Below, piece by piece: positions 4,882 through 22,399 of a stretch of DNA of 64,000 nucleotides. Made by a program: the position numbers and the translations under genes. Under the pieces are notes generated by a model. It ran no database searches and was not told the origin of the DNA. It saw only the letters and a program-made list of their open reading frames with translations. The stretch covers positions 5,220 through 69,219 of the forward strand of contig JAFXAU010000026.1 in assembly GCA_017516865.1 (NCBI GenBank), read 5' to 3'. The stretch's first letter is position 1; each line of letters opens with the position of its first letter. This DNA comes from Bacteroidales bacterium (GTDB lineage: Bacteria; Bacteroidota; Bacteroidia; Bacteroidales; UBA1715).

Positions 4882-5365
4882 ATGAAAAAAGAAATGGATT
4901 CAAGCCCAAAGAGCGAAATAATCTTGTATCAACCCAACGAAACGGTGTCGTTGGAGGTGCGGTTAGACGAGGACACGGTGTGGCTTACGCAACAGCAGAT
5001 TGCGGAATTGTTTGGAACGCAAAGACCAGCGATAACAAAGCATCTGAATAATATATATGCTTCACAAGAGTTGGATGAGGCCAGCACATGTTCCATTTTG
5101 GAACTTATGGGTAATGACGGAAAACAAGTTTATAAGAAAAAGTTTTACAATTTAGATGCAATTTTATCTGTCGGCTATCGTGTCAATTCCCGAAACGCCA
5201 CATTGTTTCGCCAATGGGTAAACAAAGTATTGAAAGACTATCTTCTACGAGGATATTCGGTGAATCACGTCTGTTCGCATTCAACAAAATGGGATTGGAT
5301 AAGAATCTGATTCTTTCGGCTGTGAAAGGTGAATTTGAGAAACCGTAGGTGTTTCGGTATGATAA
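4882..5365 (+). pseudogene. RhuM-family protein, internally deleted copy
   Basis: The first ~126 codons parallel the full-length paralog at 12438..13349. At ~5267 the homology jumps to the paralog's last ~100 nt (13239 onward). This is a ~412-nt deletion, not a multiple of 3, giving a frameshift and a stop at 5308-5310. Confidence 0.8.
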
Positions 5366-13432: not shown

Positions 13433-14326
13433 ATGAAAACGCATTTACAAGAACTTGAGGCAGAATCGATTTACATTCTTCGCGAGGTGGCGGCACAGTT
13501 CCAACGACCGGCAATCTTGTTTTCGGGGGGAAAGGACTCGATTGTGGTTACTCATTTGGCTTACAAGGCATTTTATCCTGCAAAGTTGCCGTTCCCGCTC
13601 GTGCATATTGATACGGGACATAATTTTCAGGAAACGCTCGATTATCGTGACGCATTGGTCAAAAAACTTGGTGCCGAACTGATTGTAGGTTCGGTGCAGG
13701 AATCAATCGACACGGGCAGGGTGAAGGAGGAGACTGGCTACAATGCGAGTCGTAACGCGTTGCAAACCACCACATTGCTCGATACTATAGAAAAATACAA
13801 GTTCGATGCCTGCATTGGCGGCGCACGCCGTGACGAGGAAAAAGCCCGTGCCAAGGAACGTATTTTCTCGCACCGTGACGATTTCGGACAATGGAATCCT
13901 AAGAATCAGCGTCCAGAATTGTGGAACATATTCAACGGACGCAAAAATATGGGCGAACATTTCCGCGTGTTCCCCATCAGCAACTGGACCGAAATGGACG
14001 TCTGGCAGTATATTTTACAGGAAAAGATAGAATTGCCGTCGTTGTACTATACGCACAAACGAAAGGTTTTCCAACGCGACGGACAGTGGCTCGCAGCCGA
14101 AGACTGCATCAAACGGAAACCCGACGAGGTTGTGGTTGAAAAAGAAGTCCGTTGCCGCACGATTGGCGATATCACGTGTACGGGGCTGACGCTTTCCACG
14201 GCTCATTCTCTCGAAGATATTGTTGCCGAAATTGCCGCCACACGCGTCACCGAGCGTGGTGGTCGTGCCGACGACAAACGGAGCGAAACAGCAATGGAGG
14301 ACAGAAAAAAATTAGGTTATTTTTAG
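13433..14326 (+). CDS. cysD: sulfate adenylyltransferase subunit 2 CysD
   Basis: 297 aa with PP-loop FSGGKDS. Followed by the GTPase subunit gene. Confidence 0.9.
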   Translation: MKTHLQELEAESIYILREVAAQFQRPAILFSGGKDSIVVTHLAYKAFYPAKLPFPLVHIDTGHNFQETLDYRDALVKKLGAELIVGSVQESIDTGRVKEETGYNASRNALQTTTLLDTIEKYKFDACIGGARRDEEKARAKERIFSHRDDFGQWNPKNQRPELWNIFNGRKNMGEHFRVFPISNWTEMDVWQYILQEKIELPSLYYTHKRKVFQRDGQWLAAEDCIKRKPDEVVVEKEVRCRTIGDITCTGLTLSTAHSLEDIVAEIAATRVTERGGRADDKRSETAMEDRKKLGYF

Positions 14327-14353
14327 TAGAGACGCGATTAATCGCGTCTCTAC
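14326..14353. repeat. 28-nt perfect palindrome GTAGAGACGCGATTAATCGCGTCTCTAC (copy 1)
   Basis: Exact 14+14 palindrome in the cysD-cysN spacer; its first base is the last base of the cysD stop codon. Confidence 0.9.
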
Positions 14354-15667: not shown

Positions 15668-15695
15668 GTAGAGACGCGATTAATCGCGTCTCTAC
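15668..15695. repeat. 28-nt perfect palindrome (copy 2)
   Basis: Identical to copy 1; lies in the cysN-cysH spacer. Confidence 0.9.
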
Positions 15696-15713: not shown

Positions 15714-16409
15714 ATGGATATACAATCATTAAATGCGCAATTTGCCCATTCATCGGCAGAAGAGGTCTTGGCGTTTTTTCTTAATGAATACAAAGGTGCA
15801 ATCGCCCTTTCGTCAAGTTTGAGTTACGAAGACCAGGTGTTGACAGATATGATTTGTGAGATAGACAAGTCAACGAGGATTTTCACGCTCGACACGGGTC
15901 GTTGTTTTCCTGAGACGTATTCGCTCATTGAGCGCACCAACGAACGATACGGCATAAAACTGGAAGTCTATTTTCCTGATTATCAGAATGTTCAAAAAAT
16001 GGTTGCCGAACATGGCGTGAATTTGTTTTACGGCAGTGTGGAACTGCGTCATTTGTGTTGTAATGTGCGTAAAATAGAGCCTTTGCAACGGGCACTCAAA
16101 GGTCTGAAAGTTTGGATTTGCGGTCTTCGCCGTGAACAGAGCGTTACTCGAAAGGATATGCAGCTTGTGGAGTGGGATGCCAACAACAACCTTGTGAAGC
16201 TTAATCCGCTTATTCACTGGACCGAAGACGAAGTGAAAGCGTATGTGAAACAACATAGCGTGCCATATAACAAGTTGCACGACAAAGGATTTCCGTCAAT
16301 CGGCTGCCAGCCATGTACCCGTGCCGTTGAACCGGGCGAGGACATCCGCTCCGGCCGCTGGTGGTGGGAGAATCCCGAACATCGGGAGTGCGGGTTGCAC
16401 AGGAGGTGA
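15714..16409 (+). CDS. cysH: adenylyl-/phosphoadenylyl-sulfate reductase CysH (Fe-S APS-reductase type)
   Basis: C-terminal redox motif ECGLH. Extra cysteine pairs, CC (HLCCNVRK) and CxxC (GCQPCT), as in cluster-containing APS reductases. Confidence 0.88.
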   Translation: MDIQSLNAQFAHSSAEEVLAFFLNEYKGAIALSSSLSYEDQVLTDMICEIDKSTRIFTLDTGRCFPETYSLIERTNERYGIKLEVYFPDYQNVQKMVAEHGVNLFYGSVELRHLCCNVRKIEPLQRALKGLKVWICGLRREQSVTRKDMQLVEWDANNNLVKLNPLIHWTEDEVKAYVKQHSVPYNKLHDKGFPSIGCQPCTRAVEPGEDIRSGRWWWENPEHRECGLHRR

Positions 16410-18370: not shown

Positions 18371-18386
18371 TTGGGATTGGTGTCAT

Positions 18387-18425
18387 AATCCCGAACACAG
18401 AGAGTGCGGGTTGCATAGAAGATAG
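18387..18425 (+). pseudogene. orphan duplicate of the cysH 3' terminus (NPEHRECGLHRR-stop)
   Basis: 31/39 nt identical to 16371-16409. All 8 differences are synonymous (CAT/CAC, CGG/AGA, CAC/CAT, AGG/AGA x2, TGA/TAG). Confidence 0.8.
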
Positions 18426-18441
18426 CATCCAACGAAAGACT

Positions 18442-19536
18442 TTATTTTCCTGATTTTCGTCTGTTACATTCTTTGCAGAGCATTTGGCAATTTTCGGCAA
18501 CGGTGCGTCCGCCTTCGTGCCACGGGGTAATGTGGTCGGCTTCCATTTGCGAAAGTTCAAAATGTTCGTTGCAGACGGGACAAACGCCCAACTGACGTTC
18601 GTACGCCGCCAATTTTTGTGCGTCGGAAAATGCACGGATTGACAAATATTTTTCCTTTCTCGTGAGAACATACGGATAAATGCCCGTTTTCTTCGTCACA
18701 TCATCGTCGAGAACGAGTTTGCTGACTTCTTCGTCAACTTTTTTCGTGTCTATCACCTTGTCTTTGAACTCTTTGTAAAGACTACCCCAATCCACGCCTT
18801 TCATTATCTTTTTGCGTTCTTTGGTCGGCTTAAACGATGACTCTATCCACGTAATGACAGATTGGAAAAACTGCCACAACGGCGCCGCACTCGCGTCGTG
18901 CTGATGATTTGCCATGTGAGTTTCGATGTTTCCGTCGGAAATCCACGAAATTGCTGTTTCCAAGTAATCCTGACGGATTGCCGAACCTGTCAGATAATCC
19001 GAACCGATTCTTGTGGCGGCACAGCCGGGTTTGCTGAAATATCGTTTTGCATCGCTCACCCACGAACCATGATAGACTGCGTTGCGAAGTTCTTGGTCGG
19101 TAAGTTTTTCGCCTGCTATGTTGATGGTCTTGAACCACGCAAGTTTCTCGCTGTCAGTTCCTTCGCAAATGTAGATGGATAGCTTGTAGTCAAGAATTTT
19201 ATTTTGCTCGTCGTCTTGCAGATTGACAAAATACCGCATATCGAACGAAAAATCGCCGTTTACAAACTGGCATACGCTAATGGTACGTTGCTGACCGTCA
19301 ATTACTTCGAACGTTCCATCATCGCATTTTGCCCAATACATTACGTTGAGCGGGAAACTTTTTGTGATGGTGTCGATAACCGCCTGCCGCTGCGAATCGT
19401 TATAGACAAACTCTCGCTGATACGGCGGACGAATGTTGAGTTTTCCTCCGAAGCCAACTACGCTTCCGTCTTCTGGATTGTCAATGTAGCCGTTGGTCAA
19501 ATCCCGAACGGTGATTTCGTGAAGTTCTATTTTCAT
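18442..19536 (-). CDS. DUF262 (ParB-like NTPase) - HNH endonuclease fusion
   Basis: DUF262 hallmark FEVIDGQQRT. C-terminal zinc-HNH CPVCNEHF..EADHITPWHEGGRTVAENCQMLCKECNRRK. Confidence 0.8.
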   Translation of the reverse strand: MKIELHEITVRDLTNGYIDNPEDGSVVGFGGKLNIRPPYQREFVYNDSQRQAVIDTITKSFPLNVMYWAKCDDGTFEVIDGQQRTISVCQFVNGDFSFDMRYFVNLQDDEQNKILDYKLSIYICEGTDSEKLAWFKTINIAGEKLTDQELRNAVYHGSWVSDAKRYFSKPGCAATRIGSDYLTGSAIRQDYLETAISWISDGNIETHMANHQHDASAAPLWQFFQSVITWIESSFKPTKERKKIMKGVDWGSLYKEFKDKVIDTKKVDEEVSKLVLDDDVTKKTGIYPYVLTRKEKYLSIRAFSDAQKLAAYERQLGVCPVCNEHFELSQMEADHITPWHEGGRTVAENCQMLCKECNRRKSGK

Positions 19537-19548
19537 AATTTAATGTTT

Positions 19549-20634
19549 TTAGTTTTTACCATATTCCGCTTTTGGCTCTGCTGCAACAGATGATTTCGTT
19601 TCGGGAAATTCATATTCTTTATTTTTTTGACGACGACGGATGAGAATGCGACTATATGGACATTTGTTTACTCCATTAATACATAGGGCTATATCGGTTC
19701 TTCCACGATAGTTTTTCTTAACACCAATTTTCTTTGCCAAATCACCACTTCCAACTCCAATAAGTTCAAATTGTTCGGGATTGTAAACATCCACAAAAGT
19801 GTCAGGAACACCCATTATTCCATCATAGTCTATAGGAATATCTTGTACGGAATTAACATTTATTGCATCAAAATTCTGATATTTGGGATAATCGGTATCA
19901 GAATATAATTTGTACAATATTATTTCTTCGTGACGTTTTGCTATATCTAAATTTGTAAACCAAGTTATACCCGGAACTTTCCCAACCTTCTTCGTTTCTA
20001 GTCTATCCCCTTGTCTAATCTCTTTTGATTCACCTTCATAATTATCAGGCATAGCAAATAACATAGTTTGATTTGTATTATATCCTAACCAAATTTTATC
20101 AGTTTTTATATAAGGGAATATTTCAGAATAATGAATTGCATTATGACTTCCAATTATCACAAATTTCTTCTCATATTTCATCAATTGTGCAACATATTCG
20201 CGAAACAACGAAAACGGAGGATTGGTAACAACAATATCGGCTTGTTTGAGTAGATCAATACATTCATCGGAACGGAAATCGCCGTCGCCCTTAAAATAGT
20301 GAATGCCAATTTCGTCGGGGTCGGGAACACGGTTGTTGTTTTTGTCTCCATAGTATTCAAGCCAAATGGCACGTTCGGAATTGTTTTGGCTGAACAAATC
20401 ACGTTCTTGGTTTTTGTAGCACGTGGTTATGAGTTTTTTCAAGCCCAACTGCTCAAAATTGTAACTAAAATAGTGGAAGAAATTTGAAACACGTGGGTCG
20501 TCGCAGTTGCACAGTACGGTTTTCCCTTTGAAATGTTCTTTGTAATGCCGTAGTTCGTTTTCAATATCAGCGAGTTGCGTGTAGAACTCGTCTTTCTTGG
20601 CACTCTTTGCTTGGTTTAGATTTTTGTTTGCCAT
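19549..20634 (-). CDS. amino (N6-adenine-type) DNA methyltransferase, EcoRI-methylase-like family
   Basis: N-terminal KKDEFYTQ motif and catalytic IVVTNPPFSLFREY (NPPF). Its stop is 12 nt upstream of the nuclease gene. Confidence 0.8.
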   Translation of the reverse strand: MANKNLNQAKSAKKDEFYTQLADIENELRHYKEHFKGKTVLCNCDDPRVSNFFHYFSYNFEQLGLKKLITTCYKNQERDLFSQNNSERAIWLEYYGDKNNNRVPDPDEIGIHYFKGDGDFRSDECIDLLKQADIVVTNPPFSLFREYVAQLMKYEKKFVIIGSHNAIHYSEIFPYIKTDKIWLGYNTNQTMLFAMPDNYEGESKEIRQGDRLETKKVGKVPGITWFTNLDIAKRHEEIILYKLYSDTDYPKYQNFDAINVNSVQDIPIDYDGIMGVPDTFVDVYNPEQFELIGVGSGDLAKKIGVKKNYRGRTDIALCINGVNKCPYSRILIRRRQKNKEYEFPETKSSVAAEPKAEYGKN

Positions 20635-20637
20635 CGT

Positions 20638-20667
20638 GATTGATAGTTAGTGCATTCACTATCAATC
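20638..20667 (-). promoter_or_regulatory. perfect 10-bp inverted repeat abutting the MTase start codon
   Basis: GATTGATAGT-N10-ACTATCAATC, starting 3 nt from the ATG (20632-20634). Could be an operator or a 5'-UTR hairpin. Confidence 0.4.
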
Positions 20668-20989
20668 TTTATCGGCAACAAGAAAGGTGCGAGCCTTTCC
20701 ATCATATTCACGAGGAGCGTCGCTTGAACCCCGCTGCACTGTTAGAATAGCCCACACCTTATCAGCGTGAGCATTAACTCAAAATACAGTGCAACGGAAT
20801 AAACGCTTCCGTAAATGATATTATCCGATAATTCTAATCTTCAGTTTGCGACGCTTTTGATTCGAATATGAATAATAGCTAATGCTGTATGTTAAACTTT
20901 ATATTTTTTTCTAATTCATACTTTTTGTTTTGTATTATTTGGTTTCAAAAGTATTAAAAAAGTTTGGGAATGACAAAAAGAATCAGAAA

Positions 20990-21109
20990 ATGTCGTTGAG
21001 GAATTACAAATACGTGGCAGGGCAAAAGGTACAAAATAAGGCATCCTTGCCAACTGGTACGTATTTCGTGCATTATGGAACGCAAGTGAAAAAGGTTGTG
21101 GTGCGGTAA
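20990..21109 (+). pseudogene. stump of a T9SS cargo gene (C-terminal sorting domain only)
   Basis: 39 codons ..NYKYVAGQKVQNKASLPTGTYFVHYGTQVKKVVVR-stop, which match Por-secretion-tail endings. No upstream coding body. Confidence 0.6.
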
Positions 21110-21198
21110 TGCAGGTTGTATATGTTGTTTATGCTAAAAAAATGATATTACGCACAAAAACGTATTCCCATTAGTTCAAAATCGTAATTTTTGAAAAT

Positions 21199-21219
21199 AA
21201 CCTATCTGATTGGTAGGTT
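21199..21219 (+). promoter_or_regulatory. 21-nt palindromic site AACCTA-N9-TAGGTT upstream of the porin-pstS promoter
   Basis: aacctatctgattggtaggtt. It ends 16 nt upstream of the TAtgTTTG -7 box at 21236-21243. Confidence 0.5.
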
Positions 21220-21252
21220 ATGTTAAAATTTCCTGTATGTTTGTACTCGAAT

Positions 21253-21273
21253 AACCTATCAAAATGGTAGGTT
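21253..21273 (+). promoter_or_regulatory. second AACCTA-N9-TAGGTT site between the -7 box and the porin ATG
   Basis: aacctatcaaaatggtaggtt. Same two-site layout as the pstC promoter. Confidence 0.5.
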
Positions 21274-21293
21274 AATAACTAAAACAAATAAAT

Positions 21294-22364
21294 ATGAAAA
21301 GAACAAAACTAATTATTTCAGCATTGTTGCTTGCAGGAGTAGGGGCTTTTGCCCAGCAAGCGGAACAACCAGCAGCCGACAAACCGGCTGTTGAACAAGA
21401 AAAGAAGTTGGTGACACCTTCGGGATTTTTGCAGGCGGGCTACACGTACACCGATGCAAATACATCGACGTTTTTGCTTCGTCGTGCGAGAATTGTGTTG
21501 CAAGGCGACCTTTACAAAGGCAAAGCAGGCAAGTTTGACTACAAGTTGCAGCTTGAAGTTACGGGTACTCCGAAAATTCTTGACTTGCAATTGCGTTATC
21601 GTCCAATCGACGAGTTTGGCATCAAGTTGGGACAATATAAGTCACCGCTTTCAATTGAAAACTCGGAATACAATCCCGCAAGATTGGAATTTATCAACTA
21701 CTCGCTTGTAGTTCAGCGACTTGCACGTATGAGTAAGAGCGATTTGTCTGGCTACAACGAAAATGGTCGTGACATCGGTTTGGATTTTGTCGGAAGTGCG
21801 TTCAAACAAGACGGATATTCGTTGTTGAACTACGAACTTGCCATTTTCAATGGCTACAAACTGAATACGAACGACGACAACCAGTCAAAAGACATTGTAG
21901 GCCGTTTGATAGTGAATGCAACCAAGGAATTGTCATTTGCTGGTTACTACCAGTGGGGCGAAGGAAATTTGCCTGAATATGTTGACTCACTTCACAAATA
22001 TGTGGCTCAAACAACCGATTTCTACGTGCCTTTGCAACGCTACGGCGGCGGAGTTGCCTATAAGGCCGACAAGGCATTCGCACGTGCTGAATATATTGCA
22101 GGAAAAACGGGCGACATAAATGCAGGCGGTTTCTACGTTGCCGGCGGCTACGAATTTGTGAAACATTTTATGTTGACTGCCCGCTACGACTACTTCAGCG
22201 ACAATACCGACGACAAAGACTACAATGTTGAACAAGATTATACCGTTGGTTTGAACTACACCCCGCTAAAGTCGCTTAACTTCAAACTGAACTATACGCA
22301 TCATAATTACAATAGTAAGACTGATTTGAATGGTTTGTATTTGATGGCAACTGTAAAATATTAA
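21294..22364 (+). CDS. phosphate-selective porin O/P family outer-membrane protein
   Basis: Signal peptide and a beta-strand-rich sequence (LRRARIVLQGDL, GIKLGQYKSPLSIEN). Immediately upstream of pstS. Confidence 0.75.
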   Translation: MKRTKLIISALLLAGVGAFAQQAEQPAADKPAVEQEKKLVTPSGFLQAGYTYTDANTSTFLLRRARIVLQGDLYKGKAGKFDYKLQLEVTGTPKILDLQLRYRPIDEFGIKLGQYKSPLSIENSEYNPARLEFINYSLVVQRLARMSKSDLSGYNENGRDIGLDFVGSAFKQDGYSLLNYELAIFNGYKLNTNDDNQSKDIVGRLIVNATKELSFAGYYQWGEGNLPEYVDSLHKYVAQTTDFYVPLQRYGGGVAYKADKAFARAEYIAGKTGDINAGGFYVAGGYEFVKHFMLTARYDYFSDNTDDKDYNVEQDYTVGLNYTPLKSLNFKLNYTHHNYNSKTDLNGLYLMATVKY

Positions 22365-22371
22365 AATAAAC

Positions 22372-22399
22372 GTAGAGACGCGATTAATCGCGTCTCTAC
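22372..22399. repeat. 28-nt perfect palindrome (copy 3)
   Basis: Identical sequence in the porin-pstS spacer. Confidence 0.9.

Follow-up and report, generated by a model that had tools for sequence, protein, structure and literature searches.

A BanLI-type restriction-modification cassette with variable methyltransferase segments and a candidate structured RNA leader in an uncultured Bacteroidales genome

Introduction

The restriction-modification (R-M) system BanLI of Bifidobacterium animalis subsp. lactis is the characterised prototype of the gene pair analysed in this work, which lies on the minus strand at positions 18442 to 20634 of a 64,000-nucleotide stretch of DNA (hereafter, the window; positions 5,220 to 69,219 of contig JAFXAU010000026.1, assembly GCA_017516865.1) from an uncultured rumen/gut Bacteroidales bacterium. 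In BanLI, a methyltransferase of 41.7 kDa, M.BanLI, which was aligned to M.EcoRI, is followed downstream by the gene of R.BanLI, a protein of 43.5 kDa (O'Connell Motherway et al., 2014; PMC3990576). Single-molecule real-time (SMRT) sequencing revealed N6-methyladenine (m6A) on one strand of the asymmetric sequence 5'-RTC(6mA)GG-3', the cloned system lowered P1 plaquing approximately 10-fold, and premethylation by M.BanLI increased transformation 1.8-fold (PMC3990576). The authors interpreted BanLI as an incomplete Type IIS system from which the second methylase had been lost (PMC3990576). In a 2026 paper, the DUF262-annotated gene of the same subspecies is given as the REBASE Type II restriction endonuclease (REase) for RTCAGG (PMC13091528). 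In GmrSD, BrxU and SspE, the role ascribed to the DUF262 domain itself is the sensing of modified DNA (PMC12065111; PMC12707154).

We found no mechanistic account of the pairing of a DUF262-HNH protein with an EcoRI-type methylase in the open-access literature. As far as sequence can tell, the locus of the window is a two-gene R-M cassette of the BanLI family, an architecture that is already catalogued; m6A methylation by the product of the first gene, an HNH nuclease as the product of the second, their co-transcription and the modest restriction exerted by the prototype are established either directly or by homology. The comparison of the window with its relatives adds two aspects to this description, namely the distribution of variability between the two proteins and a conserved RNA leader.

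Results

The gene pair and its relation to BanLI

The first gene of the pair (19549..20634, minus strand, as are all the features of the cassette given below) encodes a protein of 361 amino acids (aa) that belongs to the EcoRI_methylase family of N6-adenine DNA methyltransferases (MTases). Residues 5-334 match positions 1-344 of the 345 positions of the Pfam profile PF13651 with an E value of 4e-136 and a score of 454 bits (gathering threshold, 26.4), and it is by this score, by the full-length coverage and by the presence of the NPPF motif that the protein qualifies as a member; the PADLOC model MTase_II (PDLC03297) matches it as well (E 2e-121). The NPPF tetrapeptide, catalytic motif IV, was located by translation at residues 138-141 (20212..20223), and N138, P139, P140 and F141 were invariant in 50 homologues. 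The second gene (18442..19536) begins after a spacer of 12 nt (19537..19548), whereas the two genes of most relatives either overlap by 4 nt or lie less than 30 nt apart, the 4-nt overlap being the usual arrangement in the loci that were fetched.

The product of the second gene is a nuclease of 364 aa in which a ParB-like DUF262 domain is joined to an HNH domain. Its N-terminus (residues 35-155) matches PF03235, GmrSD_N, with an E value of 4e-19, and carries the motif DGQQR at residues 80-84 (19285..19299 by translation), which was invariant in 66 out of 66 family members. The C-terminus (residues 319-362; 18451..18582) is a zinc-ribbon HNH domain, PF01844/PF14279, scoring 51.7 bits with PF01844 (threshold, 21.4), and the translation displays CPVCN..DH..LCKECNRRK where that motif is expected. 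Its assignment to the HNH domains follows from the D-H...N...N core and from the CxxC zinc pairs, position 357 being C or D: residues C319, C322, D334, H335, N349, C354 and N358 were invariant among the 66 members, and position 357 was occupied by C in 42 and by D in 24 of them. In profile searches against PDB, the HNH domain matched structure 4h9d (E 1e-5); all the matches of the nuclease were to HNH domains, and the MTase had no match. The PADLOC model REase_II (PDLC03418) covers the nuclease from end to end (1-372 of 372 positions; E 7e-134), so that the two adjacent genes, matching REase_II and MTase_II, are what PADLOC takes for an R-M system of Type II; the other PADLOC models that contain DUF262 (NsnA, PD-T4-2_A and HEC-05/06) cover the N-terminal domain of the nuclease alone. 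For the MTase, AlphaFold gave a model of moderate quality, with a predicted local distance difference test (pLDDT) value of 70, and a Foldseek search of PDB with this model returned generic Rossmann methyltransferases only; the model of the nuclease was poor (pLDDT 60; predicted template modelling score, 0.36).

The BanLI locus was fetched from a human-gut contig by means of the published primer sequence, and the termini of its open reading frames (ORFs) fit the primers (MATPLNR at the start, EEAQGK before the stop codon). The link to BanLI rests on these primers, since a protein search seeded with a Bifidobacteriaceae homologue gave no named B. animalis protein among its matches and a look-up of clusters yielded no names. 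The nuclease of the window shares 54% identity with R.BanLI over 364 of 372 aligned aa (E 2e-148), and the MTase shares 47% identity with M.BanLI (E 1e-104). Both systems consist of the same two protein families of similar sizes, with the MTase gene (M) placed before the nuclease gene (R) and with the NPPF, DGQQR and HNH motifs in place. BanLI differs in lacking the structured leader described below and in being located behind an integrase. The published forward primer for RM.BanLI (atggcgaagcgagagac) matches the start of a tyrosine-integrase ORF upstream of banLI.M on a B. animalis-type contig (L095:2200-3420), and the construct used in the phage assay of PMC3990576 apparently held the integrase too. 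A degenerate zinc site was considered as a cause of the weak activity of BanLI and was rejected, since Asp stands at position 357 in 24 of the 66 family members.

An initial annotation of the window, made from its sequence alone, had described two minus-strand ORFs separated by 12 nt that carry NPPF, DGQQR and zinc-HNH motifs; the ORFs were recovered at the same positions, and translation and Pfam agree on the motifs. Both genes had been called AT-rich, which is true of the MTase, with a G+C fraction of 0.360 (0.343 in the non-coding DNA upstream of it), but not of the nuclease, whose value of 0.459 equals that of the flanks (0.46-0.47). That the pair forms an operonic R-M module is supported by the M-then-R order of 75 out of 80 loci and by the BanLI homologue, which methylates DNA and restricts P1 about 10-fold. 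The same annotation had regarded the architecture as atypical and as not assignable to a named system, a view that had to be abandoned in the face of the end-to-end PADLOC Type II matches, the REBASE listing and the identity to both BanLI proteins. It had also conceded that the pair would not be new if it were widespread and already annotated as R-M, and this proved to be the case.

Constant nuclease and variable methyltransferase cassettes

When 66 M/R pairs (those of the fetched loci and of the window) were aligned, two segments of the MTase stood out as hypervariable. The mean pairwise identity was 0.68 for the nuclease, which is evenly conserved, and 0.71 for the core of the MTase, but 0.28 for the variable cassette VR1 (residues 183-224; 19963..20088) and 0.19 for the variable cassette VR2 (residues 290-329; 19648..19767). 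Discrete types, 18 of VR1 and 33 of VR2, could be distinguished, conserved within each type and common to different phyla, and the 66 systems contain 50 combinations of them. The similarity of VR1 is uncorrelated with that of VR2 (Spearman -0.09), and nuclease divergence follows the MTase core (0.47) and not VR1 or VR2 (0.01 and 0.08, respectively). Nucleases that are 98-99% identical are paired with unalignable VRs, as in loci L003, L004 and L005: the VR1 cassettes of L003 and L004 are 97% alike and their VR2 cassettes 26%, and between L004 and L005 the values are 17% for VR1 and 15% for VR2. At the DNA level, identity decreases to 20-45% at the VRs only, in operons that are otherwise 80-100% identical, which points to an exchange of cassettes by recombination. 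The VR2 type of the window recurs in L010 and L021, and the three systems have three different VR1 cassettes. BanLI has other VR1 and VR2 cassettes than the window, and the recognition site of the window system is therefore probably not that of BanLI.

A pattern of this kind is the mark of systems in which the target of a conserved restriction subunit is set by a specificity subunit (HsdS in Type I) or by the MTase (Mod in Type III), and Type II enzymes that recognise DNA independently should diversify in step with their MTase. From the pattern of the VRs and this precedent we infer that sequence specificity lies in the MTase, in VR1 and VR2 as two independently exchangeable target-recognition modules, and that no sequence is read by the DUF262-HNH protein itself; the combination of a constant nuclease with shuffled MTase cassettes would argue against independent recognition by the nuclease. 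Domain searches of the MTase and the nuclease found no ResIII or helicase domain of the sort that a Type III Res subunit carries.

Distribution and mobility of the pair

A metagenomic protein collection contains, for each of the two proteins, more than 8000 close homologues, and a scan of the GTDB species-representative genomes gave at least 577 confirmed matches; among the matches listed were Bacteroidota, Spirochaetota, Planctomycetota, Acidobacteriota, Firmicutes, Actinobacteria, Patescibacteria and one archaeon. An exhaustive HMMER search returned 510 clusters (50% identity, E<=1e-30), nearly all of 360-420 aa. The pair is also found on plasmids, where the NCBI annotation reads 'DUF262 domain-containing protein' for the one product and 'adenine-specific methyltransferase EcoRI family protein' for the other. 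An EcoRI-family MTase gene lies directly upstream and on the same strand in 75 of the 80 fetched loci. In three of the other five, the contig ends within the locus, which leaves 75 out of 77 informative loci.

Two intact DUF262-HNH genes are solitary (L068:6001-7086 and L078:6001-7086), having no EcoRI-type MTase within 6 kb, a tolerance that is not expected of a free-standing Type II endonuclease. The solitary nuclease of L078 adjoins a complete C5-methylase/NgoFVII-type R-M system. One protein of 688 aa (P0263) is a natural fusion of an EcoRI-family MTase with a DUF262-HNH nuclease in which FPSF replaces NPPF; to judge from this replacement, its MTase half may serve for DNA recognition only.

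Conservation between loci stops at the stop codon of the nuclease on one side and at about position 20903 on the other, and the genes that flank the cassette are unrelated from locus to locus, with no shared synteny. The mobile unit would therefore comprise the leader, M and R, in total approximately 2.46 kb. All the contigs found for the species of the window carry the cassette at the same place, and the comparison with sister genomes that the initial annotation had proposed gave no empty site, as every contig with the neighbouring GNAT protein also carries the cassette.

The junction of M and R is a hotspot of insertion in other genomes (L001, L015, L025, L059, L060 and L009). Fic-domain proteins with a helix-turn-helix occupy it in L001 (1222-2160) and L015 (4878-5987), both assignments having been checked with Pfam. 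In L025 (1398-6032), the junction holds ORFs of 326 and 657 aa that by eye are RhuM- and ATPase-like, together with an ORF6N-like ORF. A putative AIPR-like ORF is located there in L059 (4285-5967) and a putative Bro/KilA-N-like ORF in L060 (5134-5997), and a small pair of genes lies at the junction in L009 (5415-5986). In L026 (3918-5273), a transposase interrupts the MTase gene.

A candidate structured RNA leader upstream of the methyltransferase gene

The sequence upstream of the MTase is conserved over about 270 nt and, by the combined evidence of nhmmer, covariation and folding z-score, constitutes a candidate structured leader directly 5' of the start codon (20632..20903). An nhmmer profile of this leader matched 34 of the loci searched in addition to the window, always directly 5' of the MTase and nowhere else in approximately 1 Mb. 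The matches belong to three phyla and include Bifidobacteriaceae, Eggerthellaceae and Clostridium loci; the leader loci are L002-L021, L037, L038, L045, L049, L051, L063, L067 and L076, plus the window.

Independent minimum free energy (MFE) folds of 22 leaders gave one common architecture, and the leader of the window folds with z = -4.5. RNAalifold, applied to 26 sequences, returned four main helices (L1, L2, P2 and P5), with compensatory double changes in 23 of the 30 consensus pairs. In the alignment, 91.5% of cells are paired, compared with 31-41% in slid controls, and the covariation score is 0.494, compared with 0.124 at most; none of 500 shuffles reached the observed values. The 5' strands of the long-range helices L1 (20862-20869) and L2 (20847-20853), which together span 20847..20869, pair with 3' strands at 20704-20710 and 20718-20724, respectively (20704..20724), as indicated by covariation; 94-95% of the cells of L1/L2 are paired, and 11 of the 13 pairs of the two main helices have changed on both sides. 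Hairpin P2 (GCUCRCRC / GYGYGRGC; 20751..20771), supported by RNAalifold and pair counts, lies inside a long variable outer stem, P1, in which 14 of 16 pairs have changed on both sides. The terminator-like hairpin P4 (GGAAAGG-N6-CCUUUC with a U-rich run after it; 20682..20700) is supported by pair counts and was seen in most of the 22 leaders when each was folded independently, while the MFE fold of the window's own leader pairs this stretch otherwise.

The last hairpin, P5 (20638..20667), is the perfect 10-bp inverted repeat next to the MTase start that had been noticed in the initial annotation, GATTGATAGT-N10-ACTATCAATC; it ends 3 nt before the AUG and was equalled in none of 100 shuffles. 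An inverted repeat that abuts the start codon (0-4 nt away) is found in many relatives at this conserved position, its arms varying by lineage while the pairing is kept, with compensating arms such as GATTGATAG/CTATCAATC, GCGGATAAT/GTTATCCG and GTTTGATGG/CCATCAAAC. G-U pairs are frequent on the MTase-sense strand of the leader, which points to an RNA that is transcribed with the operon. Rfam 15 gave no meaningful match at E<=10 in the window and none at E<=1 in L013. The possibility that the leader is a small ORF was rejected, as the sequence after an invariant AUG is not conserved and forms stems. In the order of its elements (a closed multi-helix domain, a terminator-like hairpin and a start-site hairpin), the candidate is similar to leaders of the riboswitch-like or protein-binding kind.

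An exact inverted copy, 15 nt long, of one half of P5 with its loop (TGCATTCACTATCAA; 21906-21920 versus 20651-20665) is found at a distance of 1.2 kb within the porin gene; it may be due to chance (about 0.04 expected in a 9-kb region) or may be a scar of recombination.

Flanking sequences and other features of the window

The side of the cassette beyond the nuclease is bounded by a displaced 3' end of cysH with its stop codon (18378..18425, plus strand), which translates to WCHNPEHRECGLHRR followed by the stop. The initial annotation had noted a displaced cysH fragment here; it is a duplicate, 82% identical to the genuine end of cysH (16362-16405), lies beyond two acyltransferase genes and abuts the stop codon of the nuclease. 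The duplication suggests that either the cassette or the pair of acyltransferase genes arrived by recombination beside a cysH gene. On the other side, the gene-less stretch reported earlier was found again and measures 659 nt (20635-21293). The stump of a type IX secretion system (T9SS) C-terminal sorting domain that had been placed in it (20990..21109, plus strand) is a weak candidate, with no Pfam match at E<=1 and a match to TIGR04183 below the cut-off (E 0.008; 16 bits versus 23).

Further along, upstream of the Porin_O_P/PstS genes, a unit of 25 nt, AATAACCTATC-N4-GGTAGGTTA, occurs twice with a spacing of 54 nt (21196-21220 and 21250-21274). Both copies are inverted repeats in themselves, and the unit is a candidate binding site for a regulator of the phosphate operon. 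A perfect palindrome of 28 bp, GTAGAGACGCGATTAATCGCGTCTCTAC, is present in three copies (14326-14353, 15668-15695 and 22372-22399), all intergenic and each after a gene (before cysN, after cysN and after the porin gene), and it may be an element of the repetitive extragenic palindromic (REP) kind or a terminator. Four palindromes of 4 bp are strongly depleted in the window relative to the Markov expectation (observed/expected: CTAG 7/58, GATC 25/169, GGCC 48/177 and CCGG 74/195), which suggests that the genome has hosted other R-M systems in the past. An attempt to find the recognition site of the cassette through k-mer avoidance was dropped, as the avoidance of GATC, CTAG, GGCC and CCGG is not attributable to this cassette.

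Discussion

Our findings suggest that the locus is a mobile R-M cassette of the BanLI family in which the MTase bears the specificity, the nuclease is free of it and, in a gut/rumen clade, a leader controls the operon; we give this interpretation a probability of about 60%. In such a system, VR1 and VR2 would enable the MTase to read an asymmetric site, of which it would methylate one strand. The nuclease would be a restriction subunit without specificity of its own, acting at or from sites that the MTase has recognised and that are still unmethylated, or being licensed by the MTase in some other way. By analogy with BrxU, GmrSD and SspE, the ParB-like DGQQR domain may be a switch or communication module dependent on nucleoside triphosphates (NTPs), and the zinc-ribbon HNH domain would cut or nick the DNA. 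A requirement for two sites, for which Type III systems offer the analogy, or nicking only, would reconcile methylation of one strand with the survival of replicated self DNA. The resulting division of labour would be that of Type III without the helicase. The leader most likely controls the expression of the operon, possibly by means of its terminator-like hairpin and occlusion of the start codon. Several observations fit specificity borne by M: the one-strand methylation of BanLI, the single MTase as the norm of the family, the two solitary nucleases and the M-R fusion with a degenerate NPPF. The loss of a second methylase, as proposed for BanLI, does not fit a family in which a single MTase is the norm.

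Some points weigh against this interpretation. VR1 and VR2 could be surface loops rather than specificity segments, and with a moderate model of the MTase, an uninformative fold search and a poor model of the nuclease (pLDDT 60), structure prediction gave no help on the position of the VRs relative to DNA or on an M-R complex. PADLOC and REBASE file the family as Type II, which by definition has an independent endonuclease, and restriction by BanLI of only about 10-fold leaves the true activity and role of the nuclease uncertain. Regarding the leader, most members of the family, BanLI included, lack it, so that this candidate RNA is an accessory of one mobile lineage, and a simple terminator scan does not call P4.

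Among the alternatives, a conventional Type II (IIS-like) system, in which the nuclease itself recognises a fixed sequence, all the MTases of the family protect that sequence and the VRs are neutral loops, agrees with the REase_II and MTase_II labels of PADLOC and with the treatment of BanLI as Type II or IIS by REBASE and by its authors, and the uniformly high conservation of the nuclease is what would be expected of isoschizomers. A Type II endonuclease, according to the criterion that Roberts is said to have set out in 2003, recognises a defined sequence independently of the MTase and needs no NTP hydrolysis to cut at a fixed position. We nevertheless hold this alternative to be unlikely, because discrete VR types that are conserved within type, cross phyla and recombine independently are typical of target-recognition modules and not of neutral loops, because methylation of one strand of an asymmetric site would leave one daughter duplex open to a free-standing enzyme, and because intact solitary nucleases exist. 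A toxin-antitoxin or abortive-infection system, in which the MTase would restrain the nuclease by contact, a phage that perturbs the MTase would set the nuclease free and methylation would have another purpose, seems very unlikely to us. The tight translational coupling of the genes, the weak restriction by BanLI, the accessory genes of defence or abortive-infection type (Fic, AIPR-like, RhuM and ORF6N) between M and R in some loci and the one M-R fusion with a degenerate NPPF would be in line with it; the invariance of NPPF in the 50 aligned homologues is not, nor is the increase in transformation efficiency upon premethylation by M.BanLI, and recognition cassettes that diversify and recombine would be predicted if R-M specificity is under frequency-dependent selection.

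It is hardly credible, finally, that the nuclease belongs with the GmrSD-like enzymes of Type IV that are directed against modified phage DNA, and that the neighbouring MTase is functionally unrelated to it. The N-terminal DUF262 domain with DGQQR does match GmrSD_N of Pfam, and sensing of modified DNA is the role described for this domain in GmrSD, BrxU and SspE (PMC12065111; PMC12707154), but the nuclease is obligately linked to one MTase family in 75 of the 77 informative loci, has about half the size of GmrSD and lacks DUF1524, its full-length match in PADLOC is a Type II model where the models of other DUF262 defence proteins reach the N-terminal domain only, and methylation by M.BanLI relieves restriction.

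Beyond the MTase-borne specificity that we favour, a more far-reaching proposal can be put forward, tentatively and with some doubt: BanLI-type systems may be misfiled as Type II and may form a separate, helicase-free class of R-M, in which an EcoRI-family MTase with two swappable recognition cassettes supplies all the specificity and methylates one strand, restriction is exerted by a ParB-like NTP switch joined to HNH only upon recruitment or licensing by the MTase, possibly at two sites, and, in gut and rumen bacteria, a new riboswitch-like leader governs the operon and accompanies the cassette across phyla.

As a restriction system, the locus is ordinary, one more BanLI-type cassette in the genome of an uncultured rumen/gut Bacteroidales. 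The family is very widespread and merits closer study than the label 'Type II' would imply. The sole member studied was written off as a Type IIS system in decay. What the comparative pattern predicts is a specificity that is programmable through two exchangeable MTase cassettes and a nuclease that has no need to read sequence. If this is true, the single-strand methylation of BanLI would be explained, and the family would provide a compact model for the coupling of ParB-like DUF262 domains to HNH nucleases and a small, retargetable scaffold for methylation and restriction. The leader of about 270 nt is a well-supported, undescribed candidate for a structured RNA on an R-M operon, and, to our knowledge, cis-acting RNA control is poorly documented for such operons.

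The pair can be placed among known systems by its separate parts. The MTase is a full-length member of PF13651, as is M.EcoRI, whose partner differs in being a PD-(D/E)xK enzyme and whose site is palindromic. With the HNH Type II enzymes KpnI, Hpy99I and PacI, the nuclease shares the beta-beta-alpha-Me/HNH active site and the CxxC zinc ligands; we know of no DUF262 domain in these three. With GmrSD, BrxU and SspE (Type IV, DUF262 plus DUF1524), it shares the N-terminal ParB-like DUF262 domain with DGQQR and a C-terminal His-Me finger nuclease. It differs from them in being about half as long and in having a canonical zinc-ribbon HNH domain (PF01844) in place of DUF1524, Pfam giving no PF07510 match in the nuclease, so that the C-terminal half typical of GmrSD is missing. 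It is not a stand-alone enzyme without a cognate MTase either, the MTase gene being directly upstream in 75 of the 77 informative loci, and is presumably blocked by modification where the other proteins depend on it. Type III systems (Mod/Res, for instance EcoP15I) differ in having a ResIII helicase/translocase and a PD-(D/E)xK nuclease, the MTase of BanLI-type systems is of the EcoRI family and not a Type III Mod, and the dependence of R on M is, for the BanLI type, deduced from comparison. What the two have in common is a variable recognition region in the MTase next to a conserved restriction subunit, the methylation of one strand of an asymmetric site (in the BanLI prototype) and an NTP-binding domain on the restriction subunit.

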